From: Candidatus Microgenomates bacterium
GTDB lineage: Bacteria; Patescibacteriota; Microgenomatia; UBA1406; GWC2-37-13
Reading direction: 5' to 3'
Assembly (NCBI GenBank): GCA_025451885.1
Contig: JANWJL010000034.1
Location: 13,149 to 77,148, forward strand
Length of the DNA: 64,000 nt
The number at the start of each line of letters is the position of its first letter. The stretch's first letter is position 1. Position numbers and translations under genes: made by a program. The notes beneath the pieces were generated by a model. The model had not been told where the DNA came from. It ran no database searches and was given only the letters and a program-made list of their open reading frames with translations. Positions 19,215 through 61,462 of this stretch are shown here, in pieces.

Positions 19215-20480
19215 TCACTCTATTCGTAGGTAGGGAATCGTTATGATCATCTGGCCGCCTTTTTCGCGGTATTTGGTCTGTTTTCTTAAAATCTCGTCTG
19301 CAAAATTCCAAGCAAGTATCAGAGTATAGTCCGGCATCTCTTTAGTCAGCTTTCTTTCGGGAAAAATCGGGATATGTGTCCCGGGGGTAAAGCGTCCCTG
19401 TTTGTAGGGGATAGAGTCAACGACATAATCAAGAAGCTTAGGTGTAATTCCACAATAATTCAAAAAAACATTTCCTTTTGCTGCAGCTCCGTATCCGACA
19501 ATCTGTTTTCCCTGCTTCCGAAGTCTTTTTAGATAGTCCAGAGTATCACGTCTTATCATCTTAACCCTTCTTGCAAATTCATCATATGCCTCTCTTTTGT
19601 TAAGTTTTTTTAGAAGCTCTATTTTTACGAATTCCTTGACCGATGATCTCACTCTGTGCTTTGATCCCTTCTTGGAGGCAAAAACCATGATTGAACCTCC
19701 GTGAACCGGTGTGCGTCTTACATCGAAAACCTGCATCCTATTTTTTTTGAAAAGTTCCAATAAGGGGCGAATCGCAAAATAAGAAAGGTGCTCATGATAG
19801 ATCGTATCAAACTCATTTTTATCTATCAGATCGACTAGATAAGGATACTCCATGACAAAAATTCCGTCTTGTTTCAACAGCGTACGCACGCCCTTAACGA
19901 CATCGTGGAGATCGCTTACGTGCGCGATAACATTGGTACCGCTTATTATTTTTGCTTTTCCGTATTTCTTTACGGTTTTTTTGGCAAGCTTTGATGAAAA
20001 AAAATCATCTATCGTATCTATTCCTTTCATCCGTGCAACCTGAGCAAGATTTGATGCAGGATCAATGCCGAGCACCTTCATCTCCTGTTCCTGAAAGTAG
20101 CTTAAAAGTGTCCCGTCATTCGAACCTATATCTATTACGAGGTCTTTGGGTTTTAATTTAAACTCCTTTACCAAATCTAGCGCCATTGTCTTAAAGTGCT
20201 CCAGCATTGTACTTGAGGTAGAGGGAATATAAAGATAGTTTCTGAACATTATTTCAGCAGGTATAACGTGGGTCAGCTGTACAAGCCAGCAATTTTCGCA
20301 CACGAAACACGCCAAGGGAAAATAGTCTTCTTTTTTCTTTAACTCCTGCTTGGTCAGAAACCCGTTAGGAATCGGCATTGCACTGAGATCAAGAAAAAGA
20401 TAAAGTTGCTTGCTCTTGCAGATTCTACAGTGGGAGATTTTGTAGGAATCTGCTTCTGCTGCGAGTTTTCGAGGTCTCAT
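19215..20480 (-). CDS. NDP-sugar C-methyltransferase (TylCIII-type: Zn-ribbon + class I SAM MTase + C-terminal C-methyltransferase domain), paralogue 1
   Basis: N-terminal 'CRICKSKQ...CENCWLVQL', SAM motif '[10 protein letters not shown]', 'HEHLSYF', C-terminal '[11 protein letters not shown]...[10 protein letters not shown]'. Collinear with ORF 38168..39418. Confidence 0.7.
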
Positions 20481-20545
20481 AACAATATAGTTGTAAGAAA
20501 TTATAGTTAATAAATCTAAATTATCAATACGCTGAACTGTCGTAG

Positions 20546-20551
20546 TATACT
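20546..20551 (+). promoter_or_regulatory. -10 box TATACT, 6 nt upstream of ATG 20558
   Basis: Read directly: cgtagTATACTgtatcgATG. Confidence 0.4.
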
Positions 20552-20557
20552 GTATCG

Positions 20558-21853
20558 ATGCGCTCTGCTTTCAAAAAGGTGTGGGACAATAATTTTTTAA
20601 AAGGAGGACTAATATTTACAGTTGCTTCTTTTATAGGAAGTGTAATTAATTATTTCTTCAACGTTCTTGCCGCACGTGGAGTTGGACCAAGTGATTTTGG
20701 CGACATTACAGCTTTGTTTTCCTACATGACCATCTTCTCCGTCCCTACCTTGGTTATGACCGTAGTAATAGTCCAAAAAATCGGTTCTAAGGGAGCCAAT
20801 TCAAAGAACTTTGTCATCGCCGTACAAAGATGGTTTGGAGAAGTCTTGAAGAAATCGTGGATCTACATGATACCGGTAATGATTTTTATACCATTTGTTT
20901 CCGGTTTTACCAACCTTTCTGTTGTTAGCGGCTATTCTTTTATACCGCTGGTTGTTTTATCCTTCATTGGAAGTTTTTATGGAGCGCTTCTTCAAGGATT
21001 AAGTCTTTTTACATGGTTTTCTATTATCGGAATCGTAACCGTTCTTGTGAAGTTGCTCGGCCCTATATTAGTACTGTTAAAGGTTGATGGCCTCACGACC
21101 ATAATCCTGTTTCTTTTTACATCCATGGCGGTTAATCTTTTTTTATCCGTAAAAATACTTTCCGGCAATCTGAAAAAAGGCAGTATCGCTCCTACCCACG
21201 TCATCAGAAAACGCATTAAGGACGCACTGATAAACAGACAGGTGATCGTAGCATTTTTATCACTACTGGCTTTGACTGCCTTTAATAATCTTGACGTTAT
21301 CTTTGCAAAAAAATATTTGCAGGACACAACAGCAGGGATTTACAGTACCTGGAGTTTATTCGCAAAAATTATTTTCTTTCTGATCGGTCCCATCACAACG
21401 GTCAGTTATGTTTTCTTTTCACAAAAAACAAGTGAAAAATCTCACGAAAGAGTCTTGATATATTCGCTTGTAACTCTTTTGGGAATCGGAGTTGCAAGTT
21501 TTATAGTTTACAAATACTTTGCGGGCGTCTTGATCTATTATTTCTTCGGCAAGGCTTTTGAGAGGGTAATTCCATACCTAGCAACAGCAAGCATCTTTGG
21601 CTTTTTATATTCTGTTATTGCGTTTTGTAATAATTACTTTCTGGCAAAAAACAGCTATTTATCACTTTTATTGGCATTATTTATCCCGCTTTACACTATT
21701 ATGTTATTTCTTATTCCTAAAAACATCGCTTCGTTCATCAACCTTAATCTCTCGTTCTCTTCATGTATTGGGGCTGTTTACATTATTGCTTCGGTCTGGA
21801 GTTTCTTTTATAATAGGCGACGATGGAACTCAAAGAATCAAATCACTTCCTAA
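20558..21853 (+). CDS. MOP-superfamily polysaccharide/oligosaccharide flippase (Wzx-like)
   Basis: 431 aa with ~12 TM helices. N-terminal pattern '[43 protein letters not shown]' is typical of polysaccharide biosynthesis/flippase proteins. Confidence 0.55.
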
Positions 21854-30262: not shown

Positions 30263-31126
30263 ATGAAACCTCTTGTCTCTGTTGTAATCCCAACCTTTAA
30301 CTGTGAAGGGATCATGAAGGACTGTCTTGAATCTGTCAAAAAGCAAACGTATAAGCCGGTAGAAATTATCGTAGTGGACAGTTTTAGTACTGATAACACC
30401 GCTAAAATCGCTGCCAAGTACGGCAAGGTCTATTCATTTGGTAAGGATCCCAAAGATTTAAACACGTATGCCGCGCCTTTTCAGCGTAATTATGGTGGGA
30501 AGAAGGCGAAAGGAAAATATATTTACTGGATAGACTCTGATATGCGCCTGACTCCAAGACTCGTTGCATCTGCGATCAAAGCACTTGAAAAAAATAATGC
30601 AGATGCGGTAATCGTGCCGGAGGTCTCTTATGGAGAGTCGTTTTGGGCAAACTGCAGGGCTCTTGAGAAAGCCTGCTATAACAGGAGCGATCGCTCATAT
30701 ACCGATGCGGCAAGAGTAATCAAAAAAACCGTTTGGGACAAACTAAAGGGGCTCAATGCCCATCTCGGATCCACTGACGATTATGATTTTCAAACAAGGC
30801 TTGATGCAAAAGGTTATAAAACCATCAAAATAAAACAATACGTAAGACACTATGAGGGAAGACTTACTCTTATGAAGCAGATTAAGAAAAAGTTTATCTA
30901 TGGAAAAACTGCTTTAGGATATTTTAAAAAATATCAGGCGCGAGGTCGAAAACTTGCCGGTCAGTATTCCAGACCGGAATTTCTTCAACATCACGATCTA
31001 CTTATTAAGGATCCCTTGCATGCTGTCGGCATGATAATAATGAAATTTGTTGAATACGCAGCAGGTTTTACAGGTCTTGTATATGCCATGATTGTCCCTC
31101 AGAAAATTCAACTGCGTGAATCATGA
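30263..31126 (+). CDS. family 2 glycosyltransferase
   Basis: 'VSVVIPTFNCEG', 'IIVVDSFSTDNT', 'YWIDSDMRL'. Confidence 0.75.
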   Translation: MKPLVSVVIPTFNCEGIMKDCLESVKKQTYKPVEIIVVDSFSTDNTAKIAAKYGKVYSFGKDPKDLNTYAAPFQRNYGGKKAKGKYIYWIDSDMRLTPRLVASAIKALEKNNADAVIVPEVSYGESFWANCRALEKACYNRSDRSYTDAARVIKKTVWDKLKGLNAHLGSTDDYDFQTRLDAKGYKTIKIKQYVRHYEGRLTLMKQIKKKFIYGKTALGYFKKYQARGRKLAGQYSRPEFLQHHDLLIKDPLHAVGMIIMKFVEYAAGFTGLVYAMIVPQKIQLRES

Positions 31127-34000: not shown

Positions 34001-34024
34001 CAAATATACAACTCTTAAGCGTGC

Positions 34025-34033
34025 TGATATAAT
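34025..34033 (+). promoter_or_regulatory. extended -10 promoter element TGATATAAT, 8 nt upstream of ATG 34042
   Basis: Read directly: gcTGATATAATatagcgctATG. Confidence 0.5.
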
Positions 34034-34041
34034 ATAGCGCT

Positions 34042-35076: not shown

Positions 35077-35078
35077 GC

Positions 35079-38121: not shown

Positions 38122-38134
38122 ACTGTTGTTACTT

Positions 38135-38140
38135 TATAAT
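38135..38140 (+). promoter_or_regulatory. -10 box TATAAT upstream of C-methyltransferase paralogue 2 (27-nt leader)
   Basis: Read directly: actTTATAATtgg. Confidence 0.3.
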
Positions 38141-38167
38141 TGGAGACTGTCATAGGTTAAAGGGTAC

Positions 38168-45215: not shown

Positions 45216-45255
45216 ATAAAACGGGTAAAAAACTTTATAATACCCACGAGACCCC

Positions 45256-46839: not shown

Positions 46840-46845
46840 TAGATT

Positions 46846-50283: not shown

Positions 50284-50873
50284 TAAACATATTGTTTTAT
50301 TTGCTTTTTCTTACGTCTGAAGTTCTTGCATTAAGGACCTGGGCTTACTGTAAAAATCTTCAAGATAATTTATTTCATTTCTCTATGTCCCGGTTCGATC
50401 TTAGTGTCATCGAAGCCACCACTGGCAAAGTTGATTCTTCAATTTTTTTGATCCGTTTTTTTCATAACAAGATAATCCTGTTTTTCTCTCAAGTTTTTAA
50501 CCTGTACCTTAACTTTTGGGATTTATTGGTGATGGTAAACATGATTTCAGTCGTTGGTTTCGTATTTATGATATATGGAATATATAGTCTAATTGAAAAA
50601 CGCAGATTAAGAGTGTTGTCTATAATTTTTTTTGCAGCCTTGTTTCTGCAGTTGGCAGAAATATTTTTAAACCCTACGATCCCTTTTCTTTTTAAGTTTA
50701 TTTTAATTTCGCTTCCGTATCTTTTACTATCTTTTTTTGGGTTTAAGGCTTATACGATAGATGGTAAATCCAAGGGGCGTCTCGTGGTTGTACTTATATT
50801 TTTAGTCGTGAGTGTATTATGGCTTGTTGTATTTCAACCACAGGGACCCGCTTATTGTGTAAAAATACAATAG
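50271..50873 (+). CDS. hypothetical polytopic membrane protein (200 aa, ~5 TM)
   Basis: Hydrophobic ORF overlapping the GT-C gene stop by 13 nt. No recognisable motif. Confidence 0.4.
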   Translation: MGNMINILFYLLFLTSEVLALRTWAYCKNLQDNLFHFSMSRFDLSVIEATTGKVDSSIFLIRFFHNKIILFFSQVFNLYLNFWDLLVMVNMISVVGFVFMIYGIYSLIEKRRLRVLSIIFFAALFLQLAEIFLNPTIPFLFKFILISLPYLLLSFFGFKAYTIDGKSKGRLVVVLIFLVVSVLWLVVFQPQGPAYCVKIQ

Positions 50874-50896
50874 TTTTTCTTGTAGAATTACAATAC

Positions 50897-51532
50897 ATGA
50901 AGATTCTTGAAGTAAACAAACTGGCCCTTCCTGGAATTCAAGTCATTAGATCGCAGCGTTTTACCGACCATCGTGGTTATTTCACAGAAGTATTTAAGAA
51001 AAGCGATTTTCAAAATAATCCGAATGTTGCAGCTTTTAAAGATAGTGAGATTTTACAATCTAACGAGAGCTTTTCAAAAAAGGGAGTTGTAAGGGGTCTT
51101 CATTTTCAGTGGGATCCATTTCAAGCAAAATTAATACGCACCCTTCGCGGGCGGATGGTTGATTTATTTTTGGATATACGCATCGGGTCGCCAACCTATG
51201 GAAAGATTGCTGCCTATGATATGCCGTCGTCGCCGGATGTTGATATAAATGAATGGATCTGGATTCCTGTAGGGTTCGCTCATGGAAATGTTTTCACTGA
51301 AGACACTCAGATAGAATATTATTGTTCACAGGAATGGAGTCCTGGCAATGAGGCGAGCATTTCTCCGTTTGCGCCTGATATAGACTGGTCATTATGCAGT
51401 CCCGACCTCAAAACAACATTTGATGAATATTCTAAAGCTGGTCTTGTTACCGAAAAAGATAAGGACGGATTCACTCTTGAACAGTGGGGAAAAAGTGTAA
51501 ACTCCAAAAAGTTTACTTATCAGCCTTCCTGA
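50897..51532 (+). CDS. NDP-4-keto-6-deoxyhexose 3,5-epimerase (RmlC-like cupin)
   Basis: 'RFTDHRGYFTEVF', 'VRGLHFQ', 'VGFAHGNVF'. Start set at ATG 50897 (MKILEVNKL). Confidence 0.75.
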   Translation: MKILEVNKLALPGIQVIRSQRFTDHRGYFTEVFKKSDFQNNPNVAAFKDSEILQSNESFSKKGVVRGLHFQWDPFQAKLIRTLRGRMVDLFLDIRIGSPTYGKIAAYDMPSSPDVDINEWIWIPVGFAHGNVFTEDTQIEYYCSQEWSPGNEASISPFAPDIDWSLCSPDLKTTFDEYSKAGLVTEKDKDGFTLEQWGKSVNSKKFTYQPS

Positions 51533-52253
51533 TACCGGCAATCAAAGTCAGACCAATTGGAGAAAAACCAGCGGCTTCCTCAGCTCTTAGTTCCAACTCA
51601 ATAAGCTTCCTTACTGTCTTACTTATAGGTGATTGAGAGTGCCTCATGGTTTCATTTACCGGCTTGTGAAGGATTTTCTCAAAGATAAAATAGGGGAAAT
51701 AACCCAATAAATTCCAAAAAGAGACAAACTCAACTGTTCCTTGGAGAGCAGAGAGTTTATCTAGCAGTAGTTTTTTATCGTAACGGCGGTAATGACCCCA
51801 GGCCTTATCGCGGGTCCCGAACAGATGAGAATGCGCGGGCACGGTAAGTATCAGTAGTCCACCTGGCTTCACAAATGAAAATAGGTTTTTTAAGGCGAGG
51901 TCGTCGTTTTCTATGTGTTCTATGACATCCGAAGCAAGTACATAATCAAATTCTTCTTTTCCCTTTTTTTCTATGATATTTCCTTGCACGACCTCTATCC
52001 CTTTCATCTGAGGATTTTTTTTCATAGCCTCGCACAGATTTCTGGAAAGTTCCATGCCCGTCACATCAAATCCGTGGTTTTTGAAGAAACGAAGTACTAA
52101 ACCGTTTCCTGCGCCGATATCAATGAACTTACCCCTTTGTTTCTTGATTTTTTTTAGGATAAATCGGGCAAGATTTGTGATTCGAAGATCATAATCGCCT
52201 GAAGAGAGAAGTTCTTGTTGAGTCTCAAGATCTGAGACTTGATAGTGGCCCAT
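51513..52253 (-). CDS. class I SAM-dependent methyltransferase
   Basis: SAM motif I 'FIDIGAGNGLVL', 'DYVLASDVIEHI', 'PGGLLILTVP'. Its 3' end overlaps the convergent RmlC-like gene by 20 nt. Confidence 0.75.
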   Translation of the reverse strand: MGHYQVSDLETQQELLSSGDYDLRITNLARFILKKIKKQRGKFIDIGAGNGLVLRFFKNHGFDVTGMELSRNLCEAMKKNPQMKGIEVVQGNIIEKKGKEEFDYVLASDVIEHIENDDLALKNLFSFVKPGGLLILTVPAHSHLFGTRDKAWGHYRRYDKKLLLDKLSALQGTVEFVSFWNLLGYFPYFIFEKILHKPVNETMRHSQSPISKTVRKLIELELRAEEAAGFSPIGLTLIAGIRKADK

Positions 52254-52257
52254 GGAG

Positions 52258-53238
52258 TTATTGCTTACTTTCGTATCGTTTTATGTCGGCCTCGACCATC
52301 GTCTTTACAAGCTCGGGGAAGGCCATCTTGGGGGTCCAGCCAAGTATTTTCTTTGCTTTATCAGGTTTTCCACACAGATGTGGAACTTCGGCAGGTCTTT
52401 TGAATCGAGGATCGCTTTTTACATATTTTTGCCAGTCATCTATACCTGCAGTCTTAAAAGCAAGCTCGACAAATTCCTTTACCGAATGGGTTTTACCGGT
52501 CCCTATGACAAAATCTTCAGGCTTTTCAAGCTGGAGCATGCTGTACATCGCCTCGACGTAATCACCTGCGAAACCCCAGTCCCTCTTTGGCTCAAGATCT
52601 CCCAGTGACAGATCTTTTGCTTTTCCAGTCTTAATCCTGGCTACACCGTCTGAGATCTTTCTTGTAACGAACTGAATTCCACGGATAGGGGACTCATGGT
52701 TAAACAATATGCCGCTGCATGCGAAGATTCCGTATGATTCACGAAAATTTACGGTCATCCAGTGTGCGTAAACCTTTGAGATGCCGTATGGACTTCTGGG
52801 GTGAAAGGGCGTATTTTCGTCCTGAAATCCACCGTCGTTTCCCAATCCGAACATTTCTGAAGTTGAGGCCTGATAAAACCTACTGGTGGGGGAAAATAGT
52901 TTGATTGCACTTAAAAGATTGAGTACGCCAACGGCATTGATCTCGGTAGTAAGCTTTGCCTGCTCCCAGGAAGAGCCTACAAATGACTGGGCCGCAAGGT
53001 TGTAGACCTCCTGGGGCCTTATGTTTTTAATAATGTTTAAGAGAGAGGCGTCATCGGTTAGATCACCTTCTATAAACTCGATCTTGTTTGTAACTCCCAG
53101 ATAGTCTAGGTTGTCAAACTGGGGCTTAGAGTATCTGCGAAGCATCCCGTAGACTTTGTAATCTTTCTCCAGAAGATATTTCGCAAGATACGGACCATCC
53201 TGTCCAAGAATGCCTGTAATGAGGGCCTGTTTAGCCAT
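52258..53238 (-). CDS. gmd: GDP-mannose 4,6-dehydratase
   Basis: 'ALITGILGQDGPYLAKYLLEKDYKVYG', 'STSEMFG', 'YGISKVYAHW', 'ILFNHESPIRG', 'LGDLEPKRDWGFAGDYVEA'. Start set at ATG 53238 (MAKQALITG). Confidence 0.9.
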   Translation of the reverse strand: MAKQALITGILGQDGPYLAKYLLEKDYKVYGMLRRYSKPQFDNLDYLGVTNKIEFIEGDLTDDASLLNIIKNIRPQEVYNLAAQSFVGSSWEQAKLTTEINAVGVLNLLSAIKLFSPTSRFYQASTSEMFGLGNDGGFQDENTPFHPRSPYGISKVYAHWMTVNFRESYGIFACSGILFNHESPIRGIQFVTRKISDGVARIKTGKAKDLSLGDLEPKRDWGFAGDYVEAMYSMLQLEKPEDFVIGTGKTHSVKEFVELAFKTAGIDDWQKYVKSDPRFKRPAEVPHLCGKPDKAKKILGWTPKMAFPELVKTMVEADIKRYESKQ

Positions 53239-53248
53239 ATAAAAATAC

Positions 53249-53257
53249 ATTATAACA
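53249..53257 (-). promoter_or_regulatory. extended -10 element TGTTATAAT (minus strand), 10 nt upstream of gmd ATG
   Basis: Reverse complement of attataaca at 53249-53257. Confidence 0.45.
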
Positions 53258-53265
53258 GACAATTT

Positions 53266-53274
53266 TGTTACAAT
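53266..53274 (+). promoter_or_regulatory. extended -10 element TGTTACAAT, 6 nt upstream of ATG 53281
   Basis: Read directly: ttTGTTACAATatatacATG. It is back-to-back with the gmd promoter in a 42-nt divergent spacer. Confidence 0.45.
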
Positions 53275-53280
53275 ATATAC

Positions 53281-54564
53281 ATGCGGCATCGGTTGCTAAA
53301 ATTCCTTCGTACTCCGAATAGTAGGAACATTGTCATTAATACAATCGGCAACTATCTAAACGTCGCTTTTACCGCTTTTTTTGCCCTTGTCCTGGTAAGA
53401 ATCATGACTCCTGCCCAATATGGAGTCCTTAGTGTATTACTGGGAATTTCATATGTTCTCGCAAACGTCCTTGATTTTGGAGTTACTGCCGCAATTTACT
53501 CAACGCTTCCCATACTTATCGAGGAAAAACGTGAACGTATCTACAACTTCATTAAAACCAACTTTGCCTTCCAATCCCTATTCTCATCCACTGTGCTTTT
53601 TGCCCTTTTTATCTCTTTTCCGTACCTTGATCAGGTGTTTTTTAAAACAGGCGCACCGGCTTCGGATCTTTATATCACCGGTCTTGCAGTACTGTTTTTA
53701 ATCTGGCAGAACTTTGCCTTAAATATCTTGTTTGCAGCTAAAAAATTCCTGGTCGCCAATATCCACAACAATCTGCAGAATGTCCTAAAAACCATAGTCT
53801 TGTTTGGTCTTATTTATACAAAGACGGTGACGGTGGGATGGGTGATCTTCACCTTTGGGGTAATCGGCCCCTTGTTGTTTTTTCTGACACTTGCGATAGA
53901 CCGAAGAGATGCTGTTTTTTTCCTTTCAAAAGCGCGTGTGAGAAGGAGCGAGTTCCGTGCCGGCTATACGCTCACGTACTTTATCGCAACCCAGCTTTAT
54001 AATTTAGGAGGCAGAATGGATCTATTCCTACTCTCATTTTTCCTGCTTAAGAATGATGTGGGATATTATGGTCTTTCACAAAAAATAGTGCTTAGTATAG
54101 TAACTACCGTCGTTTCAGTCACGCAGGTTTTGTCTCCGAACTTTGCCAAAGTACGGACAAAAATGGAGGCAAGAAAAGAACTCAGACACGGCTTCTTTTA
54201 TCTGTTAATTCCTACTTTCTTGTACATCCTGGTCTTCCTCACGCCTAACTGGGTCTATTATCTTTTCTTTACCGAGCGCTTTGCGCCGACAGCTGCAATA
54301 ACCAAAGCCCTTGTTCCTGCATACCTTATATTCACACTCGGAAATCTTCCGCTACAATTCGTTCTCTATACGATACGCAAGCCGATCTACGTGCTCTACG
54401 GAAACGTCCTGTACTTCCTAATCATGACAATAGGGTGCTATGTGCTTATCCCACAGATCGGAATTAAAGCTCCTCCTTTGATAAATGCTCTGGCCATATT
54501 GGCACCGGTGACCGTACTAAGTCTCACTACTTTTTATGCCTACAAAAAACTTCCTAACCGATAA
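53281..54564 (+). CDS. MOP-superfamily flippase (Wzx-like)
   Basis: 'IVINTIGNYLNVAFTAFFALVLVRIMTPAQYGVLSVLLGISYV' N-terminus with ~12 TM helices. Confidence 0.55.
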   Translation: MRHRLLKFLRTPNSRNIVINTIGNYLNVAFTAFFALVLVRIMTPAQYGVLSVLLGISYVLANVLDFGVTAAIYSTLPILIEEKRERIYNFIKTNFAFQSLFSSTVLFALFISFPYLDQVFFKTGAPASDLYITGLAVLFLIWQNFALNILFAAKKFLVANIHNNLQNVLKTIVLFGLIYTKTVTVGWVIFTFGVIGPLLFFLTLAIDRRDAVFFLSKARVRRSEFRAGYTLTYFIATQLYNLGGRMDLFLLSFFLLKNDVGYYGLSQKIVLSIVTTVVSVTQVLSPNFAKVRTKMEARKELRHGFFYLLIPTFLYILVFLTPNWVYYLFFTERFAPTAAITKALVPAYLIFTLGNLPLQFVLYTIRKPIYVLYGNVLYFLIMTIGCYVLIPQIGIKAPPLINALAILAPVTVLSLTTFYAYKKLPNR

Positions 54565-55369
54565 ATTTACAGTTATTATTCCTACGTTTACGAACACCCA
54601 GGGATTACTGGCGGTCTTACGAGATATTGAAAAATTCTACGAAAATGCTTCTGTGATTTTAGTAAATAATGACAGAAAAACGCCTTTGGAAGAAAAGATT
54701 AAGGTGCAATCCTATCGTTTAAATATATCTATTCTCAACAACCGGAAGAATTATGGATTTGCGCGTGCTGCAAATGACGGCGCAAGAAGAGCAGAGGAGC
54801 TTACTAGTCCGGAGTATTTAATTTTTTTAAATGATGATCTTTCGTTTGTCAAAAGATGGATCGAGGACTGTATTGCAGAAATAAAACGCAATCGATGGTT
54901 TGCCTCGGTACCGCTTTTGATAAATAATAAGGGTGTGGCAGAAAATTACGGATACAAGGTGTTGCCCTTTGGAAAAATCCAGTTGTTAACGAATCCTAAA
55001 CAAGAAAACGCCGACGGTTATACCGGCGCTGCCATTGTTTTTGTAAAAAAAGACTTTTTTAATCTCCAAGGGTTTGATCCTATATATTTCGCTTACCTTG
55101 AAGATGTAGATCTTTTTTTACGTGCAAGAAAAATGGGGATGGAATTTGGACTCGTACAAAAGGTGAGAGTTTTTCATGAAGGCCAAAAAACATCCTCACA
55201 GTTTAAGGTAAAAAAAGCCTATCTTGATTTTAAAAACTGGAATATCCTGATCGCGAAAAACTGGGGTTTGAAGAAAATCGTATTTAACCTGCCTCAAATA
55301 CTGTTGGAGCGCCTAAGAAATCTCTGGGGCATCGTAAAGGCTTTTCAACGAATCCAGCGTTCAGACTGA
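54536..55369 (+). CDS. family 2 glycosyltransferase
   Basis: 'FTVIIPTFTNT', 'IFLNDDLSF', 'LEDVDLFLR'. Overlaps the flippase by 29 nt. Confidence 0.7.
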   Translation: MPTKNFLTDKFTVIIPTFTNTQGLLAVLRDIEKFYENASVILVNNDRKTPLEEKIKVQSYRLNISILNNRKNYGFARAANDGARRAEELTSPEYLIFLNDDLSFVKRWIEDCIAEIKRNRWFASVPLLINNKGVAENYGYKVLPFGKIQLLTNPKQENADGYTGAAIVFVKKDFFNLQGFDPIYFAYLEDVDLFLRARKMGMEFGLVQKVRVFHEGQKTSSQFKVKKAYLDFKNWNILIAKNWGLKKIVFNLPQILLERLRNLWGIVKAFQRIQRSD

Positions 55370-56694
55370 AGTCCTCGTACTGTTTGTGCGTTCTTTTGCC
55401 TAAATCCGTTGCTTTCCAGTGCTTTTTTATAGTCAAAGCCATGAATATCACTGGTATAGGGAATAACCAGGATGCTGCTTTCATTACCGTAACCTCCCCG
55501 TATATCTTTTATTGCGATTTCCTTGTTGTAATATTGCACCGGATCAGAAGATGAGGGAATCATATAGACTTTTTTTTCATCTGTTATGTTTTTGACCAAG
55601 CCCTTCCAGTCTTCACGGTGAAAACCGGAAAAGAACAGATAGACACAAGAAAAGAAAAAGAACCCTGCAAGAACTCTGACTCGCTGTGGTCTGTTTTGTG
55701 AACCAAGAGCTATCAGCAGGGAAAGTACCGGCAAAAGATATAGGAAACGGAAGTACTGCAGCATCGGTTTATAGAAAGAGACAAGAAAGCCAAGAGCAAG
55801 TGGGGCTACAAAAAGAGTTGATAAGAGTAAGTATTTAGACGCCTTTCTTGAAGCCACGTAAAAAATAAATCCCGTCCAGATTATCGCAACAAAATAGTAA
55901 AAGGCTTTTGGTTCAAAGGTAATTCTTCCCATCGTAAATTTAACCGGGACCAAAAGTAGATTTTTAATATCCGCTTTTCCCAAAACACTGGTCCAGTTTG
56001 AAATCGCTGTCAAAGTTTCTTTGGAGTTACTTAGTTGAACTTGAAGAAGGGGAATGAGAGCGAGTAAGGGCAATATGAATCCAGGAAGATAAGGAACGAG
56101 CTGTTTCAAGGATGCTTTTTTATAGAGGGTGTAAGCATAAAATGCGAGTATGAAAAAAGCCGATCCATAAAAGGTTGATATGCTGAGCGCGCTGAATGTA
56201 TTTGCGAAGATAACATCTCGTTTTCTGGTTTTGTTTTTCGGGTCTGAGCAACGAAGAATAAAATACAGAAAACAGGTGGTGAGAAATGTCACCATCATAT
56301 ACATCCGGGCTTCTTGAGAATAGTAGATGACCAGAGGATTAAAGAGGAAAAAGATCATGGCATAAAGCCCGATCCGCTTGTTACGAAGTTCCTTGCCGAT
56401 CAGGTAAATCATCCATCCGGTAAGAAGTGAAAAAAATATTGATGGAAACCGAAGAGCAATCTCGGATGTTCCAAAAACCGTCGTCCAGAGTTTTAATGTC
56501 CAGTAATACAATGGTGGATGAAAATCATGAGGAGAAAAGTTGGTAAGGATTCCTGTAAATGAATTGTTTGCGACAACGCGTCCTGTAGTTGCCTCATCAA
56601 GCCAAAGTGACTGATCAAGAGAAATAAGCCGCAGGGCAAAAGCTAAAAGAAAAACAATGATTAGTATTTTACCGCTAACCTCCAGCTTAAACAT
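55345..56694 (-). CDS. GT-C fold membrane glycosyltransferase (GT39/ArnT-like)
   Basis: 'LRLISLDQSLWLDEATTGRVV' first-loop DE motif, 'DFHPPLYYW', and ~11 TM helices. Start moved to ATG 56694 (MFKLEVSG) because the longer ORF (to 56730) runs into the tRNA-Gly gene. Confidence 0.65.
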   Translation of the reverse strand: MFKLEVSGKILIIVFLLAFALRLISLDQSLWLDEATTGRVVANNSFTGILTNFSPHDFHPPLYYWTLKLWTTVFGTSEIALRFPSIFFSLLTGWMIYLIGKELRNKRIGLYAMIFFLFNPLVIYYSQEARMYMMVTFLTTCFLYFILRCSDPKNKTRKRDVIFANTFSALSISTFYGSAFFILAFYAYTLYKKASLKQLVPYLPGFILPLLALIPLLQVQLSNSKETLTAISNWTSVLGKADIKNLLLVPVKFTMGRITFEPKAFYYFVAIIWTGFIFYVASRKASKYLLLSTLFVAPLALGFLVSFYKPMLQYFRFLYLLPVLSLLIALGSQNRPQRVRVLAGFFFFSCVYLFFSGFHREDWKGLVKNITDEKKVYMIPSSSDPVQYYNKEIAIKDIRGGYGNESSILVIPYTSDIHGFDYKKALESNGFRQKNAQTVRGLQSERWIR

Positions 56695-56768
56695 TGGAGC
56701 GGGATAGGGGAGTCGAACCCCTTTCTTCACCTTGGAAGGGTGACGTTAAGCCGTTTAACTAATCCCGC
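56695..56768 (-). tRNA. tRNA-Gly (anticodon UCC), CCA encoded
   Basis: Folded by hand from the minus strand: GCGGGAT-TA-GTTA-AACGGCT-TAAC-G-TCACC-CTTCCAA-GGTGA-AGAA-AGGGG-TTCGACT-CCCCT-ATCCCGC-T-CCA. It is 74 nt, all four stems are Watson-Crick, the T-loop is TTCGACT, and the discriminator is U. Confidence 0.85.
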
Positions 56769-56835: not shown

Positions 56836-57591
56836 TCAATGTGTGTCCTGGTAGTACGTCTGGCTTTCCTCAAGCTCTTCCGGGCGGTTGACGCCTATTC
56901 CCACCTCTTCAAACGGTACGAGTAAAGCAGAGACAGGCTTTTTATCGGTAAATGCCACCTTGATAATATCGGTGAGATAATATTCGCCGGTGACCTTTGA
57001 TTTATGGATTGCGTTGATATGGGATTGTAAAAAATCATAGTCAAAACAATACAACCCTGCGTTTAATTCTTTTATCTTTTTCTGATCTTCATCTGCATCC
57101 TTATGCTCAATAATGTCAACAACCTTTCCACCGGAGTCCCGCTCAATATGACCCCATGCAAGCTCTTCAGGCTTTTCGTATTTTGTGGTAATAAAGGTAA
57201 CCACTGCGTCATCTTTCTGATGAAGATCAATCAGACGCTTAAGAGTTTCGTGTTTATAAAACATAAGATGGTCGCCGTAACCGATAAGCACAAGTTCGGG
57301 CTTGCTCTTTATTACCCTTAGTCCTTCACGCGTGGCATGACCCGTACCAAGCTGGTCTTTTTGTAGAGCATAGACGACATCTTTTTCATCTTTTAAGACA
57401 TCCTTGACGCTGTCTGCAAATGCACCCACTACAACTACAACCGGAGAGGATACTTCTTTGAACAACTCGACGCCGTACGTGATCATCGGCTTTTCCACAA
57501 AACTAAAGGTCACCTTATTCATATCCTTTGAGTTCAAGCGCTTTCCCTGTCCTGCTGCAAGAATTATTGAGGCAATAGATGCTTTATCCAT
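56836..57591 (-). CDS. sugar-1-phosphate nucleotidyltransferase (GlmU N-terminal domain-like, no acetyltransferase domain)
   Basis: 'IILAAGQGKRLNS' signature, 'LVLIGYGDHL', 'ELNAGLYCF'. At 251 aa it covers the pyrophosphorylase domain only. Confidence 0.7.
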   Translation of the reverse strand: MDKASIASIILAAGQGKRLNSKDMNKVTFSFVEKPMITYGVELFKEVSSPVVVVVGAFADSVKDVLKDEKDVVYALQKDQLGTGHATREGLRVIKSKPELVLIGYGDHLMFYKHETLKRLIDLHQKDDAVVTFITTKYEKPEELAWGHIERDSGGKVVDIIEHKDADEDQKKIKELNAGLYCFDYDFLQSHINAIHKSKVTGEYYLTDIIKVAFTDKKPVSALLVPFEEVGIGVNRPEELEESQTYYQDTH

Positions 57592-57727: not shown

Positions 57728-57733
57728 GTGCGT

Positions 57734-58072
57734 ATGGAAATTCTAATCAGTGCCCTGATAAACGGACTGGCGGTCTGGATTGCTGCATATGTCCTGCCTG
57801 GAGTAAATGTTGACGGATTTTTTACAGCGATCGTAGTGGCGATAATCCTTGCGATAGTAAATGCGGTTTTGCGCCCGATCCTGATTCTTCTGACGATCCC
57901 TGTGACCGTATTGAGCCTTGGATTATTTATATTTGTAATCAATGCGCTTTTGATATTACTGGTGGCAAGAATTGTGCCAGGATTTACGGTGGATAGTTTT
58001 TGGTGGGCGCTTGCCTTTAGTTTGGTTTTATCTATCGTAAATTCGTTTCTTCACTCACTTTCCCAGCCTTGA
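57734..58072 (+). CDS. small 4-TM membrane protein, DUF360 / 'phage holin family 4'-like
   Basis: 112 aa, 'MEILISALINGLAVWIAAYVLPGVNVDGFFTAIVVAIILAIVNAVLRPILILLTIPVTVLSLGLF...'. Start trimmed from the 57404 ORF, whose N-terminal part is antisense to the nucleotidyltransferase gene. Confidence 0.55.
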   Translation: MEILISALINGLAVWIAAYVLPGVNVDGFFTAIVVAIILAIVNAVLRPILILLTIPVTVLSLGLFIFVINALLILLVARIVPGFTVDSFWWALAFSLVLSIVNSFLHSLSQP

Positions 58073-59064
58073 GGGTGGTTGCCGTACCATTTGATAAGAG
58101 AGTCTACTGATTGCTGTATAGTACGTTTGGGTTTCCATTGAAGCAGCTTCGATGCTTTATCAATCGAGGCGATCATCTTGGAATATTCTCCCTGCCGGGG
58201 TTTATCTGATTTTTTCTTCTCAATTGTTTTCCCGGTTGCCTTCTCAACCTTATCAAGAATCTCTAAAACAGAATCGCCGGTACCGGTACCGAGATTAATA
58301 ATTTCATTTTTTCCTCCTTTTTCCAGATAATCTAATGCCTGGATATGAGCCTTGTTTATATCGACCACGTTAATATAGTCCCGGATAGGGGATTTATCAG
58401 GCGTCTCAACCTCGGGAAATGTGAGAAAGAACGGTTCGATCCCCAGAGCACCTCGTACTGCATTTTGGACCAAAAGAACAGAGGGTTTTTTTGAGTCACC
58501 GATAAGTCCGTCATCCGATGCGCCGCATACATTAAAGTACCTTAGGATTACATACTGCAGTCCTTTTACCTTTCCAAACCATCCGATAATCTTCTCTGCC
58601 ATCAGTTTTGATTCACCATATGGATTTGCAGGGTTGGTCGGGTGCGATTCATCAACGGGAATTTTTTGAGCTTCTCCGTATACTGCACAGGTTGAAGAGA
58701 AAACTAGACGGGAAATATTCTGCTCAGTAAGATGCCTTACCAGGTTTAGGGTACCGAGGACATTGTTTTCAAAATATTTTTCCGGCTCCTTCATAGACTC
58801 ATCCACCTTACAGGATGCAGCATAATGAAGGACCGAATCTATTCCCGTATTTTTTTTGAAAAAATTTGACAGATCTTTTCGAAGATCAACTTCTTCTACG
58901 ATAAGTTTTTCGGAGCCGAATTTTTTTTGAAGTTCAGTAAGAGGGCCCTTGTATCCTGTAGAAAAGTTATCCAGAGCAATCACTGAATGTCCTTGCTCGA
59001 GTAATTGGTATGTGGCAACAGAGGCAATATATCCACCTGCACCGGTTATCAACACTTTTTTCAT
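58051..59064 (-). CDS. galE: UDP-glucose 4-epimerase
   Basis: 'VLITGAGGYIASV', 'SSTCAVYG', 'YGESKLMAE' (YxxxK), 'RYFNVCGA', 'RDYINVVD'. Confidence 0.85.
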   Translation of the reverse strand: MKKVLITGAGGYIASVATYQLLEQGHSVIALDNFSTGYKGPLTELQKKFGSEKLIVEEVDLRKDLSNFFKKNTGIDSVLHYAASCKVDESMKEPEKYFENNVLGTLNLVRHLTEQNISRLVFSSTCAVYGEAQKIPVDESHPTNPANPYGESKLMAEKIIGWFGKVKGLQYVILRYFNVCGASDDGLIGDSKKPSVLLVQNAVRGALGIEPFFLTFPEVETPDKSPIRDYINVVDINKAHIQALDYLEKGGKNEIINLGTGTGDSVLEILDKVEKATGKTIEKKKSDKPRQGEYSKMIASIDKASKLLQWKPKRTIQQSVDSLIKWYGNHPQGWESE

Positions 59065-59951
59065 GACTCTTTTTTGTTATTAAAGTAGACAATAAGTTCA
59101 CCGATAATTCCGGTCATAATGATTTGGAACCCTACTATAATCAAAAGAACTCCCAGAAGAAGAGCTGGTCTTTGAAAAAGAAGCACGCCAAAGAATAATC
59201 GTTCGTATGCAAGATAGGCACATAATATAAATCCTGCCATAAAAATAATTGATCCAATCGGGCCAAAAAAATGAAGCGGTTTTTCTGAAAAACTATATAT
59301 AAATGCAGTTGTTACGGTGTCAAAAAATCCGGATATTACCCTAAAAAATCCGTACTTTGATTTTCCTGAGTGTCTGGGATGATGATGTACTACAACCTCC
59401 GATGTCTTAAAGCCTTCTTTATCGGCTAATATCGGTATGAAACGGTAATTGTCACCATATAAGGAGACCTGTTCCAGAACTTCTCTGCGCATTGCCTTGA
59501 ACCCGCAGTTTATATCATGAAACCTTGATTGGAGGAGGACTCCGAGAAGAAATTGATTAAAGATTGAAGAATAAAATTTCTTGAAGAAAGGGTCTTTTCT
59601 GTTTTTTCTCCAACCGTTTACCAAATCGTATCCGTGCTTAATCTTTTCCAAAAAGGCAGGAATATCTGCAGGGTCGTCCTGGAGATCCGCGTCCATGAAA
59701 AAAATTACTTCTCCTTTTGATGCGAAAAAGCCGGACATGAGGGCGCGTCCTTTACCCATTCTTTTTCTGTGTGAGACCAAAACCGTATTTTCCTTACCTT
59801 TTATTTTCTGTGAAGATGCGTCAGTCGAACCGTCGTCTACAAAGACTATCTCAAAATTTTGGCTAAGACTTTTCATAACTTCCCGTATTTTTTTATACAG
59901 TGGCGCAAGATTTTCTTTTTCGTTGTGAAAGGGAATAATGAAGCTGATCAT
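59061..59951 (-). CDS. family 2 glycosyltransferase, polyprenol-phosphate sugar synthase type (GtrB/ArnC/DPM1-like) with two C-terminal TM helices
   Basis: 'ISFIIPFHNEKENL', 'IVFVDDGSTDAS', 'IFFMDADLQDDP', and C-terminal 'IFMAGFILCAYLAY...LLGVLLIIVGFQIIMTGIIGE'. Confidence 0.75.
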   Translation of the reverse strand: MISFIIPFHNEKENLAPLYKKIREVMKSLSQNFEIVFVDDGSTDASSQKIKGKENTVLVSHRKRMGKGRALMSGFFASKGEVIFFMDADLQDDPADIPAFLEKIKHGYDLVNGWRKNRKDPFFKKFYSSIFNQFLLGVLLQSRFHDINCGFKAMRREVLEQVSLYGDNYRFIPILADKEGFKTSEVVVHHHPRHSGKSKYGFFRVISGFFDTVTTAFIYSFSEKPLHFFGPIGSIIFMAGFILCAYLAYERLFFGVLLFQRPALLLGVLLIIVGFQIIMTGIIGELIVYFNNKKES

Positions 59952-61462
59952 GGTTTTTTCTTCTTATATACTTCGAAATTTTTCTTCTGATATATCAATT
60001 CGAAATCCGGATCTTTTACCAATCTCTGATATACGGGTATAAGTGTGTCCTTCTCAGGATAATTATATATTTCATTTAACCGAATGGCAATGTAATCGGC
60101 TAAAACGTAGTCCTCGTCAAATGTATAGAAATATCTTCTTCCGGAAAAGAACGGCGAGAGTTGGCCTGTAGACGAGATCTTAAGGTCCTCTTTTTTCAGG
60201 AGATCTCCCCAGAGTTTTGCATCCGACATCTCAGCCTGAGGATATTTGATCGGGTGGATTTCTTTTTCTAATGAGTAGGGTAGTGGACTTTTCCAGTAGG
60301 AAAAAATAGCCGTCGCAATAAGAATGTAAACCATTGCTATTATTGTTATCTTATTTACTATTCGAGCCTGTCGAGAACGGTTCTTCTCGATTACACTCGA
60401 AGAATAATCAATAAGTTTCTTTGCTCCGTAGATTGCGGATATAAAAATAAACGGCTGTATCACTGCCGTGTAATGGTAGATGATATTTCTCATATTCCAG
60501 TTTTCGGAAAGGAGATTTACTCCTAATTCCGGCAGTGAGATTAAAAAAATGGGAAGTGCAAAAACCGATAAGAAGCCGAGGGGTCCTAAGAGAAATAAAA
60601 AGTATCTAAAGGTGTCGGTATGAAATACCCGCTGTAGTACCACTTGAGGGTTTTTAAAAAAACCTAGGAGTATTGCGCCCGGAGAATCACCGAAGTCGCT
60701 GTATCTGGCGACTGCAAAGTGATCTCCTCCTCTAAAGTGGGGAATAATCCAAAATACTGAAGCGCAAAACCATATCAAACTCGTGATCAAAACCGTAATC
60801 GGAAATTTCAAAGATTTTTTTTCTTTGAATTGATCGTACAAAATATACAGTGCAAAAAAAGCAGCGGTCAGCGATACCTGCTCTTTTGCCATAAGCGACA
60901 AAAGGAGAAAGATAAAACTGGAGAGATAGTTTTTTCTTAGATAGAAATAGAACGTAAAAAGAAGCGTCGTGGTTGCAAGCACAACTGCATGAAAGTCGTA
61001 GATATTTGCTTTCTGCAATACGGGATTGAGTAGGTAGCTGAGCGCAAAGGCAAGCGAAAGTAACTCCTTATACTTTGATTTGTTAAATACTACGCTTGTT
61101 ATAAGAAAGACTGCAAAAGCTCCAAGCGACACGACTACGGCTTGTATGACAAGCAACATTGCAGGTGAGTCTTTGAAAAAATAAAACGGAGCGAGAAGAC
61201 CAAGAAGCAGGTCGTTATGCACTCCCATTCTTTTTATCTGTTCTTTACCAAGAGGGTCTGTGATCTCAAGAAAGTGTGAATAATCGTTTTTTTGAATTGC
61301 CTTGTATGAGTTGTGTACTGCCTGATGCATGATCCCAAGGTCAAAGTAAGAGGCGTAAAGGGTATGATACCTAAGAACCGTAAGATAGGAAAAGTAAAAA
61401 GCGTAGAGTGCGATGAAAAGCCACAGGAAAACTTTTGGTCGTAGTATTTTTTTCAAGAACAT
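59948..61462 (-). CDS. polytopic membrane protein, DUF2079-like (candidate GT-C type transferase)
   Basis: 504 aa with ~13 TM helices. N-terminal 'RYHTLYASYFDLGIMHQAVHNS' resembles the DUF2079 signature. It is start/stop-coupled to the polyprenol-P GT2. Confidence 0.5.
   Translation of the reverse strand: MFLKKILRPKVFLWLFIALYAFYFSYLTVLRYHTLYASYFDLGIMHQAVHNSYKAIQKNDYSHFLEITDPLGKEQIKRMGVHNDLLLGLLAPFYFFKDSPAMLLVIQAVVVSLGAFAVFLITSVVFNKSKYKELLSLAFALSYLLNPVLQKANIYDFHAVVLATTTLLFTFYFYLRKNYLSSFIFLLLSLMAKEQVSLTAAFFALYILYDQFKEKKSLKFPITVLITSLIWFCASVFWIIPHFRGGDHFAVARYSDFGDSPGAILLGFFKNPQVVLQRVFHTDTFRYFLFLLGPLGFLSVFALPIFLISLPELGVNLLSENWNMRNIIYHYTAVIQPFIFISAIYGAKKLIDYSSSVIEKNRSRQARIVNKITIIAMVYILIATAIFSYWKSPLPYSLEKEIHPIKYPQAEMSDAKLWGDLLKKEDLKISSTGQLSPFFSGRRYFYTFDEDYVLADYIAIRLNEIYNYPEKDTLIPVYQRLVKDPDFELIYQKKNFEVYKKKKP

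Follow-up and report, generated by a model that had tools for sequence, protein, structure and literature searches.

The GT-C glycosyltransferases AftD, Emb, and Aft build polymers outside the membrane from polyprenol-phosphate (polyprenol-P) monosaccharide donors. In the N-glycosylation pathway of Haloferax, the family 2 glycosyltransferase (GT2) AglD makes a dolichol-phosphate hexose, the Wzx-like MOP protein AglR moves it, and the PMT_2-like AglS transfers it; in this pathway, to which AglJ also belongs, the oligosaccharide is assembled on a monophosphate carrier. The multi-component transmembrane glycosylation systems, e.g., CsbB/GtcA/YfhO, GtrABC, and GacI/GacJ/GacK/GacL, comprise a GT-A/GT2 enzyme that makes a polyprenol-P-sugar, a flippase, and then a GT-C enzyme outside, and the GacI/J/K/L variant contains a cytoplasmic GT-A without transmembrane (TM) helices and the Wzx-type flippase GacK (PMC8035078). 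In the lactococcal polysaccharide pellicle (PSP) pathway, a GT2 without TM helices starts an oligosaccharide on undecaprenyl monophosphate, which is extended in the cytoplasm and exported by Wzx before GT-C enzymes polymerize and ligate it; TagO, the classical initiator, has its gene at another site and works on a different chain (PMC10821137). Here, a locus of about 42 kb is described that extends from lepA to a Xer gene at positions 19215-61462 of a 64-kb stretch of DNA, called the window throughout; genes are named by their start coordinates in it. The closest LepA relatives (80-81% identity) belong to Candidatus Roizmanbacteria (Candidate Phyla Radiation (CPR), Microgenomates). With a probability of roughly 60%, the principal envelope glycan of a Roizmanbacteria bacterium is specified by this locus, which would be built from multi-component transmembrane glycosylation modules.

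Much of the diversity of bacteria belongs to the CPR or Patescibacteria, which live on the surface of other cells and whose own surface chemistry has hardly been characterized. A 2024 perspective on these organisms nowhere mentions glycans, polysaccharides, S-layers, or teichoic acids (PMC11665869). In the searches made, neither CPR envelope glycans nor the families described below were covered by any publication; nothing relevant turned up on DUF2079/PF09852, on GT39/GT83/ArnT in CPR, on CPR together with GT-C, or on Roizmanbacteria together with glycosyltransferases. Related complete or near-complete genomes have sizes of 1.10-1.22 Mb, and in a genome of about 1.1 Mb the locus should occupy about 4%. 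Such a share in a host that has shed most biosynthesis suggests an elaborate surface glycan under strong selection. The concrete candidates supplied by the window are an ArnC-type synthase, three flippases, eight GT-C enzymes, and an AftD-like family with a conserved partner.

Gene content and genetic coupling

Every open reading frame (ORF) of at least 150 amino acids (aa) in the window was scanned with the Pfam and NCBIfam profiles, and negative results refer to a threshold of E <= 0.01. Nearly every gene between 19215 and 61462 has a role in glycan biosynthesis, and the genes are tightly packed. The locus was found to encode eight GT2 enzymes (21823, 22622, 30263, 31123, 33011, 47961, 54536, and 59061), one GT4 enzyme (36964), three MOP/Wzx-type flippases, seven polytopic GT-C proteins, nine nucleotide-sugar enzymes, four S-adenosylmethionine (SAM) methyltransferases, including two that belong to the NDP-hexose C-methyltransferases, and one B12-radical SAM enzyme. 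An eighth GT-C gene is located at 766-2442. An earlier note on this DNA had given the same numbers for the GT2, GT4, MOP, nucleotide-sugar, SAM, and radical SAM genes; they were reproduced exactly and are well above chance. The inventory of the note had included neither a ferredoxin gene (23649-23897) nor the polytopic nature of protein 42753. The density of GT-C homologs, eight per 64 kb, compares with two detectable regions when the lepA surroundings of 35 related genomes (543 kb in total) are taken together.

The eight polytopic proteins were assigned to the GT-C glycosyltransferases, as the earlier note had proposed, and each assignment is supported by profiles, paralogy, homologs, or, in the case of 40553, by the fold. 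Four scored above the gathering score of PMT_2, i.e., 45256 (45256-46839, forward strand, 52.2 bits), 48763 (48763-50283, forward, 38.2 bits, with an additional TMEM260-like match of 19.1 bits), 55345 (55345-56694, reverse, 67.4 bits), and 25684 (25684-27339, reverse, 29.3 bits at a cut-off of 26.1). The neighboring gene 27383 (27383-29029, reverse) encodes a paralog that is 55% identical to 25684 over the full length and scored 20.4 bits with PMT_2, below the threshold. In both paralogs a GT-C membrane domain is followed by C-terminal tetratricopeptide repeats (TPR), and their domain composition suggests that they probably recognize protein acceptors. Protein 59948 (59948-61462, reverse) is a polytopic DUF2079 protein (184.8 bits), a family that we take to be part of the GT-C clan CL0111 of Pfam. 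The eighth protein, 766 (reverse, 558 aa, about eight or more TM helices), is encoded outside of the main locus by a core Microgenomates gene. It had no Pfam match and a weak NCBIfam match to the LA_3751/3752 putative glycosyltransferase family, and many of its more than 1,143 homologs carry PMT_2, Glyco_transf_22, TMEM260-like, or PMT domains.

All eight proteins have 5-10 TM helices predicted from hydropathy, and all eight have an acidic motif 10-25 residues after the first TM helix (HPDERN in 766, VVDDAT in 25684, SGDEVA in 48763, and IVDDAL, GYDT, WVDEYS, WLDEAT, and YFDLG in the others). Within the 766 family the Asp-Glu pair D39, E40 is invariant. When the profile of the 766 family was aligned by hhalign with the AftD-like profile, with the DUF2079 protein, and with 50271, the probabilities were at most 15%, also between two bona fide GT-C families, so that these alignments speak neither for nor against membership. 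Sequence searches of the PDB chains with the profile of the 40553 family, with 55345, and with 25684 revealed TPR repeats as sole matches. A structural model was generated for one of the eight, 40553, and AlphaFold2 together with Foldseek revealed a GT-C fold, so that the only protein modeled agrees with the proposal of the note.

The GT2 enzyme with the clearest assignment is 59061 (59061-59951, reverse), which has two C-terminal TM helices and is encoded between the GalE gene and the DUF2079 gene. Over its full length it matched ArnC (1e-45), GtrB (2e-32), and DPMS (9e-22) in the PDB, and the ArnC model with 176.8 bits; by sequence it is clearly predicted to be a polyprenol-P-sugar synthase of the ArnC/GtrB/DPMS type. 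The soluble enzyme 21823 (21823-22617, forward, no TM helix, Glycos_transf_2 82.8 bits) is 64-79% identical in relatives, and its residues 10-176 matched DPMS (3e-10), GtrB (8e-10), and ArnC (2e-7), which makes it a candidate polyprenol-P-sugar synthase resembling GacI/WpsA. At least two such synthases had been claimed; 59061 fits this description clearly, and 21823 with a weaker match. The enzyme 22622 (22622-23656, forward) has three C-terminal TM helices and matched Glycos_transf_2 with 66.4 bits, an MftF-like model with 95 bits, and generic GT2 structures only. Two further soluble GT2 enzymes are encoded by 47961 (47961-48770, forward, Glycos_transf_2 66.8 bits) and 54536 (54536-55369, forward, 50.3 bits). 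The gene 50271 (50271-50873, forward) encodes a protein of 200 aa with five predicted TM helices, which might assist a soluble GT2 as its small partner in the membrane, similar to GacJ/WpsB.

The three flippases matched Polysacc_synt with 60.7 bits (46846-48033, forward), 42.8 bits (53281-54564, forward), and 27.2 bits over nearly the whole model (20558-21853, forward, 12 TM helices), the last value being just below the cut-off of 28.2. Orthologs of 20558 are located next to lepA in at least eight Roizmanbacteria loci, and 53281 has a 47% identical ortholog in the related locus L085. A flippase of the GtrA family was not detected in the window by either Pfam or NCBIfam.

The coupling of these genes is visible in related genomes. 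Six syntenic loci were retrieved around homologs of the AftD-like gene 40553 (L081, L083, L084, L085, L086, and L087; neighborhoods of ±10 kb with precomputed Pfam lists). In L087, a MOP flippase and two GT2 domains are joined in one protein of 939 aa (16291-19110); its N-terminal part is 44% identical to 46846, its middle domain 47% identical to 47961, and its third domain 34% identical to 54536. In L083 (18814-21084, 756 aa) and in L081 (18739-20964, 741 aa) a GT2 is fused to a PMT_2 enzyme, and both fusion genes occupy the slot of 47961 and 48763. In the window the latter two genes overlap by 8 nucleotides (nt), and 59061 and 59948 overlap by 4 nt, i.e., they are translationally coupled. 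Fusions and gene overlaps support a joint action of GT2, flippase, and GT-C, which backs the logic put forward in the earlier note, namely that a polyprenol-P-sugar is made, flipped, and transferred outside. As independent genetic evidence, the fusions also support that Wzx-type flippases work directly with GT2 and GT-C enzymes and thus serve GT-C pathways, a role that for GacK is still only inferred. To our knowledge, neither MOP-GT2-GT2 nor GT2-PMT_2 fusions have been described.

The window therefore resembles the multi-component systems in several respects, since it contains a GT2 synthase (59061), MOP flippases adjoining GT2 genes, and GT-C genes that are genetically coupled to GT2 genes. 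The GacK-type variant corresponds to the two MOP-GT2-PMT_2 triads 45256-50283 and 53281-56694, the membrane-anchored version corresponds to 59061/59948, and the acidic motif in the first loop of the polytopic GT-C proteins is common to both. In contrast to the described systems, eight GT-C enzymes are encoded in 64 kb of a genome of about 1.1 Mb, a GtrA-type flippase is missing, fusions occur in relatives, and the host is a CPR bacterium without a characterized envelope polymer. The strategy of the locus is thus already known and not unprecedented; its concentration is unusual. The new elements are the eight GT-C enzymes concentrated in a reduced CPR genome, the unannotated AftD-like family with its partner, and the flippase-GT2 and GT2-GT-C fusions.

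Similarities to the Haloferax Agl pathway were also observed, i.e., 59061 and 21823 scored against AglJ, and 22622 against AglG. However, the scores were far below the equivalog cut-offs, AglB/STT3 was not detectable by sequence, and the host is a bacterium.

The AftD-like glycosyltransferase and its partner

The gene 40553 (40553-42763, forward) encodes a protein of 732 aa, the real start being probably the ATG at 40565. It had no Pfam or NCBIfam match, and none of its about 46 homologs carries a Pfam domain. An alignment-based AlphaFold2 model was obtained with a pLDDT of 87.4 and a pTM of 0.90, in which a TM bundle at the N-terminus is followed by a beta-rich ectodomain (about 280 aa) and, at the C-terminus, by a TM anchor. 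The top 17 Foldseek matches in the PDB were all GT-C enzymes. Mycobacterial AftD was matched with E values of 9e-11 to 5e-10 and a probability of 1.00, STT3/PglB/AglB with about 1e-5, and ArnT with 6e-4; DPY19, AftA, and ALG9 were also among the matches. The family has the motif G-x-D-T in the first loop, with the near-invariant Asp D44, and the motifs LPNPKY, NPPFG...RTTAG, and WGY[FY]G are strictly conserved.

The GT-C core of TM helices, the large beta-rich extracytoplasmic domain, and the C-terminal TM helix are shared with AftD (PDB 6W98/6WBY). In contrast, the identity of 40553 to AftD in the structural alignment is only 9-10%, the TM-scores are 0.25-0.46, and AftD is much larger (about 1,400 aa versus 732 aa). 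Membership in the AftD sequence family was not supported, because a profile search of the PDB sequences gave nothing relevant and no family profile matched. Genes of the decaprenyl-phosphoarabinose pathway were not found in the window, and, differing from mycobacterial AftD/Emb, 40553 is paired with a protein that is not known from mycobacteria. Based on its modeled fold and its position, 40553 is a candidate polymerase or ligase for a lipid-linked glycan.

The motif WGY[FY]G, invariant in the family, lies at residues 465-480, about 50 residues after the TM bundle. The STT3/PglB/AglB oligosaccharyltransferases have a similarly placed WWDYG, the Asp of which is lacking in WGY[FY]G, and the resemblance may be a coincidence. 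By analogy, the motif may mean that the 40553 family is a new kind of bacterial oligosaccharyltransferase. The sequence of 40553 did not match the STT3 model of Pfam, and the fold matches to these enzymes were second-tier (E about 1e-5).

Directly downstream lies 42753 (42753-45215, forward), which encodes the conserved partner, a protein of 820 aa with seven TM helices. It was modeled from an alignment of relatives drawn from a library of 1.84 billion proteins (pLDDT 81.9). The protein consists of a signal anchor, a variable ectodomain with a helical bundle and beta-sandwiches, a block of six TM helices, and a C-terminal extracellular IPT/TIG domain (TIG 23.6 bits). Among 474 relatives only the C-terminal module, i.e., the six TM helices and IPT/TIG (residues of about 460-820), is conserved (205 relatives at E < 1e-10). 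The N-terminal ectodomain is highly variable in the family, as expected of a surface-exposed or specificity-determining part. It was considered whether 42753 could be a hidden Wzy polymerase, ligase, or phosphoglycosyltransferase, but Foldseek revealed only domain-level matches (Cry-toxin-like helical bundle and beta-sandwiches, CBM22, IPT/TIG), and the matches of the model did not include the fold of a glycosyltransferase, of a phosphoglycosyltransferase, or of Wzy, so that this idea was rejected. The predicted structure suggests that it is probably an acceptor- or carbohydrate-binding accessory and not an enzyme of a known class. For some GT-C enzymes it has been suggested that a second protein is needed for acceptor binding (PMC8035078), and 42753, with its carbohydrate-binding-like ectodomains, fits such a role.

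In the loci examined, a 42753-family gene always directly follows the AftD-like gene, and 40553 thus represents a new element, a CPR-restricted GT-C family without database annotation that is always paired with a 7-TM/IPT-TIG protein. In all six AftD-like loci the order is the same, with cytoplasmic GT2/GT4, sugar, and methyltransferase genes followed by the GT4 gene, the AftD-like gene, and the 42753-family gene. In L081, orthologs of the GT2 (50%) and of the GT4 (49%) are located upstream of the AftD-like gene. A PMT_2 gene follows next in four of the six (L081, L083, L085, and L087), in the same slot after the partner gene as its ortholog 45256 in the window, and then a MOP flippase, a GT2, or both. 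L085 continues like the window with the genes for an RmlC-like protein, a methyltransferase, the GDP-mannose 4,6-dehydratase (GMD), MOP, and GT2 in the same order. The core order is kept also in the more distant loci L084 and L086. In L086, GT2 and B12-radical SAM genes are found upstream of the AftD-like gene, which ties the module adjacent to lepA to the rest of the locus. The comparison with related genomes that the earlier note had suggested thus revealed a conserved architecture, consistent in all six loci.

Proposed pathway and alternative explanations

A recognizable initiating transferase, a Wzy polymerase, a Wzz protein, and a ligase had been reported as lacking, and this was upheld for the window and the six related loci. 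Bac_transf/WbaP and Glycos_transf_4 (WecA/MraY) had no match in any ORF of the window nor in the six loci; Wzy_C, O-antigen polymerase, EpsG, and Wzz had no match in the window; and Wzy, Wzz, and LCP families were absent from the window and from the six ±10 kb neighborhoods. Among the hypothetical proteins of the window, neither the profiles nor the fold of 42753 pointed to an initiator, polymerase, or ligase of the conventional kind. The view that this is not a classical Wzx/Wzy locus was supported insofar as none of these components was detected in the window or in the six loci; the Wzx flippases, the cytoplasmic glycosyltransferases, and the nucleotide-sugar genes of such a locus are nevertheless present.

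These cytoplasmic functions are concentrated in a co-directional operon of twelve genes (29104-40470, forward), assigned with Pfam and NCBIfam to cytoplasmic glycan assembly and the synthesis of rare sugars. Its gene order comprises a short-chain dehydrogenase/reductase (SDR, 29104), two GT2 enzymes (30263 and 31123), a methyltransferase (32145), a third GT2 (33011), a PseB/FnlA-like UDP-GlcNAc 4,6-dehydratase (34042), a PseC-like aminotransferase (35079), a sugar N-formyltransferase (36206), the GT4 (36964), a C-methyltransferase (38168), and a second SDR (39418). The NCBIfam scores were 261 bits for PseB, 382 bits for PseC, and 152 bits for the formyltransferase. The operon looks like one for cytoplasmic oligosaccharide assembly. 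Because it contains four soluble glycosyltransferases and rare-sugar genes, and Wzx-type flippases are nearby, a picture with polyprenol-P-monosaccharides only falls short. The monosaccharide logic of the earlier note thus stands for the GT2/flippase/GT-C units, but it does not explain the operon.

The best functional analog for the block 29104-46839 is the PSP pathway (WpsA/WpsB-WpsC-F-WpsG-WpsH/I/J), which has experimental support and needs no phosphoglycosyltransferase. In contrast to it, a WpsA/GacI ortholog or a WpsB/GacJ-like activator could not be demonstrated here, 21823 and 50271 being candidates only. Further differences are that the GT-C enzyme is AftD-like and has a dedicated 7-TM/IPT-TIG partner, that formamido and C-methyl deoxy sugars are predicted, and that no rhamnan acceptor pathway is visible. 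The Arn pathway was also considered, as there are an ArnC-like GT2 (59061), an ArnB/PseC-like aminotransferase (35079), an ArnA-type formyltransferase domain (36206), and enzymes of the ArnT family (PMT_2). It was rejected, because the scores of the first three were 177, 326, and 129 versus equivalog cut-offs of 529, 631, and 777, the genes are dispersed across modules, and an ArnD deformylase, an ArnE/F flippase, and a UDP-GlcA decarboxylase domain are lacking. A monoderm-like CPR bacterium is not expected to have lipid A.

The proposed pathway is built on the gene families, the GT-C fold of 40553, the conservation of the locus, and the fusions. It would combine GT2/Wzx-type flippase/GT-C units for single sugars with an oligosaccharide branch. 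Cytoplasmic enzymes would make unusual nucleotide sugars, i.e., sugars of the 4-formamido-4,6-dideoxy-HexNAc type (by the PseB-like, PseC-like, and formyltransferase proteins), C-methylated deoxyhexoses, and GDP-6-deoxyhexoses; the two C-methyltransferases, GMD, and the RmlC-like epimerase would also provide sugars for the oligosaccharide branch. On the cytoplasmic side of the membrane, GT2 enzymes, clearly 59061 and presumably also 21823 and 47961, would attach sugars to polyprenol phosphate, and the three GT2 enzymes and the GT4 of the 29-40 kb operon would probably extend a lipid-linked oligosaccharide. The three Wzx-type MOP flippases would then move the lipid-linked sugars outward, and the eight GT-C enzymes would transfer sugars outside. 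The best candidate for the polymerizing or ligating step would be 40553 together with 42753, parallel to WpsH/WpsJ in the lactococcal pellicle pathway or to AftD/Emb in mycobacteria. The PMT_2 and DUF2079 enzymes would add further residues, and the TPR-fused paralogs would probably act on proteins. The lipid carrier chemistry (mono- or diphosphate), the initiating GT2, the acceptors, and the division of labor among the GT-C enzymes enter this scheme by inference. A more far-reaching idea is that no phosphoglycosyltransferase at all takes part when CPR bacteria of the Microgenomates type make their principal surface glycan. A GT2 would start the chain on polyprenol monophosphate, Wzx-type flippases, in some cases fused to the GT2, would export it, and the AftD-like GT-C and its partner would either polymerize the glycan or pass it on as a whole to an acceptor in the wall or on a protein; this is tentative and has the odds against it.

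Several points weigh against the proposed assignment. MOP flippases classically carry diphosphate-linked oligosaccharides, and the GT2 enzymes 47961, 54536, and 22622 matched generic GT2 proteins only, among them PglI, which acts on a diphosphate-linked glycan. Protein 50271 had no Pfam or NCBIfam match and was not assigned to a family, the GT-C nature of DUF2079 is presumptive, and the putative role of 40553 as polymerase or ligase is deduced from its modeled fold and its position only. In addition, the search covered 64 kb, and the remainder of the genome, which has about 1.1 Mb, may well contain an initiator of the WecA/TagO or WbaP type, and this would make the oligosaccharide branch an ordinary diphosphate-linked one; Gram-positive wall-polysaccharide loci routinely keep TagO/GacO elsewhere (PMC10821137).

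Taken further, this leads to the explanation that the locus specifies an ordinary Wzx-dependent, undecaprenyl-diphosphate-linked wall polysaccharide, capsule, or S-layer glycan, for which the initiator and possibly an LCP ligase are encoded at another site and the GT-C enzymes only decorate side chains. The content of the 29-40 kb operon, with rare-sugar genes, three GT2 genes, and one GT4 gene, is typical of an O-antigen or capsule locus, three Wzx-type flippases are present, and PglI is the best match with a solved structure for 47961 and 54536. Remote initiators are normal in Gram-positive systems, e.g., TagO for the lactococcal rhamnan (PMC10821137). The G+C content is 0.34-0.39 across 26000-52000, whereas the housekeeping genes on the flanks have 0.40-0.44, and a low value of this kind is often seen in variable loci for surface glycans. 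However, the absence of Wzy, Wzz, and LCP families extends to the six related loci, and the AftD-like GT-C invariably comes right after the last cytoplasmic glycosyltransferase, in the slot expected for a polymerase or ligase. Eight GT-C enzymes exceed the usual needs of decoration, and the flippase-GT2 fusion in L087 fits a GT2 that acts directly on the lipid carrier. An ordinary diphosphate-linked polymer is therefore a possible but doubtful explanation. Rather unlikely is that the locus serves mainly protein O-glycosylation, in which PMT-like GT-C enzymes would move polyprenol-P-sugars to an S-layer protein, pilins, or adhesins and the TPR would select substrates, as in eukaryotic TMTC or streptococcal Pgf. 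Five enzymes match PMT_2, 48763 is also TMEM260-like, two paralogs carry TPR as protein-interaction modules, 59061 and 21823 score against the PgfS and AglJ models, and the combination of GalE, GT2, and GT-C presumably mirrors PgfE/PgfS/PgfM. Yet ArnT and many enzymes with polysaccharides or lipids as substrates are likewise members of PMT_2, the window did not reveal a candidate for the acceptor protein, and a polymer is suggested by the AftD-like enzyme and by the size of the cytoplasmic operon. Furthermore, a crude prediction of 10 TM helices for the TPR-fused enzymes would place the repeats in the cytoplasm.

According to the last alternative, glycosylation cassettes without relation to each other were acquired horizontally, lie side by side by chance as a mosaic, and have no common product. 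The genes are indeed arranged on both strands in at least five blocks with a tRNA gene mid-locus, the G+C dip spans 26-52 kb, and L002, the closest relative, does not have the C-methyltransferase gene 19215 at the corresponding site. On the other hand, the order of about 33-55 kb is kept in relatives with an AftD-like protein of only 37-42% identity, the lepA-adjacent module recurs beside the AftD-like cluster in the distant locus L086, and neither a repeat of the 3' end of the tRNA nor an integrase adjoining it was found, so that a mosaic is quite improbable.

Further genes and local features

The NDP-hexose C-methyltransferase encoded by 19215 (19215-20480, reverse) has a zinc-binding N-terminal and a C-methyltransferase C-terminal domain (Methyltransf_14 201.5 bits, Methyltransf_13 79.7 bits) and is 47% identical to its paralog 38168. 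Additional sugar genes between the glycosyltransferase units encode an RmlC-like 3,5-epimerase (50819-51532, forward; dTDP_sugar_isom 132 bits, rmlC 130 bits), a SAM methyltransferase (51513-52253, reverse), and GMD (52258-53289, reverse; GDP_Man_Dehyd 404 bits, gmd 392 bits), the order of which is identical in L085. They also encode a sugar-1-phosphate nucleotidyltransferase (56836-57591, reverse; NTP_transferase 78 bits, GlmU models about 187 bits, N-terminal half only) and the UDP-glucose/GlcNAc 4-epimerase GalE (58051-59064, reverse; TIGR01179 galE 319 bits, cut-off 262). Between the latter two genes, at about 57731-58072 (forward), a small membrane protein of about 113 aa is encoded that matched Phage_holin_4_2/DUF360 with 113.9 bits; a function as small flippase or GT2 partner is conceivable. 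The listed TTG start of this ORF at 57404 overlaps the neighboring gene and is probably wrong.

The module next to lepA contains, downstream of the flippase and the two GT2 genes, a ferredoxin gene (23649-23897, forward; 82 aa, single 4Fe-4S cluster, Fer4_13 36.4 bits) and the gene of a B12-binding radical SAM enzyme of the HpnJ/BchE-like type (23916-25673, forward; Radical_SAM 51.6 bits and B12-binding, HpnJ 139.8 bits, below the cut-off). The ferredoxin is likely to donate electrons to the adjacent enzyme, and, by analogy with HpnI/HpnJ, a lipid-linked sugar might be remodeled or C-methylated by the latter. In relatives, the identity of the radical SAM enzyme is 74-88% and that of LepA 59-80%, i.e., the radical SAM enzyme is better conserved than LepA. 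About 35 related loci were compared around lepA. The housekeeping side was syntenic across them, and the MOP - GT2 - GT2 (3 TM) - radical SAM module was present beside lepA in at least eight, with the GT-C/TPR gene included in two. The full module with the ferredoxin gene (20558-25673 in the window) was seen in L002, L004, L009, L016, L020, L027, L031, L065, and L086.

A tRNA-Gly gene (UCC anticodon, encoded CCA end; 56695-56768, reverse) was identified with ARAGORN. The true start of the PMT_2 gene 55345, the ATG at 56694, is the very next base on the same strand, directly downstream of the tRNA. The mechanically listed GTG-started ORF of this gene overlaps the tRNA and is 12 codons too long. 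A tRNA-targeted genomic island was considered and rejected, because the 3' end of the tRNA occurs only once in the window and the Xer gene, at a distance of 5.6 kb, is located on the side of the tRNA that does not fit.

The left third of the window contains housekeeping genes for an AhpC-like peroxiredoxin, SSB, CtpA, HtrA, HisRS, a short release factor, L10, GyrB, a pyrophosphatase, GyrA, FolD, MiaA, an FMN reductase, and LepA. The release-factor homolog (7892-8587) has only 231 aa, with half of the PCRF domain and the RF-1 domain and without the N-terminal domain, and it starts 8 nt after HisRS. It is kept in related loci with 71-94% identity, showing that it is no assembly artifact. Many records of metagenome-assembled genomes among the related loci (L001, L003-L011, and others) are titled 'uncultured Gammaproteobacteria bacterium'. 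Their LepA, GyrA, and GyrB proteins are 60-92% identical and the loci are fully syntenic with Roizmanbacteria, so that the titles are evidently placeholders or a wrong taxonomy.

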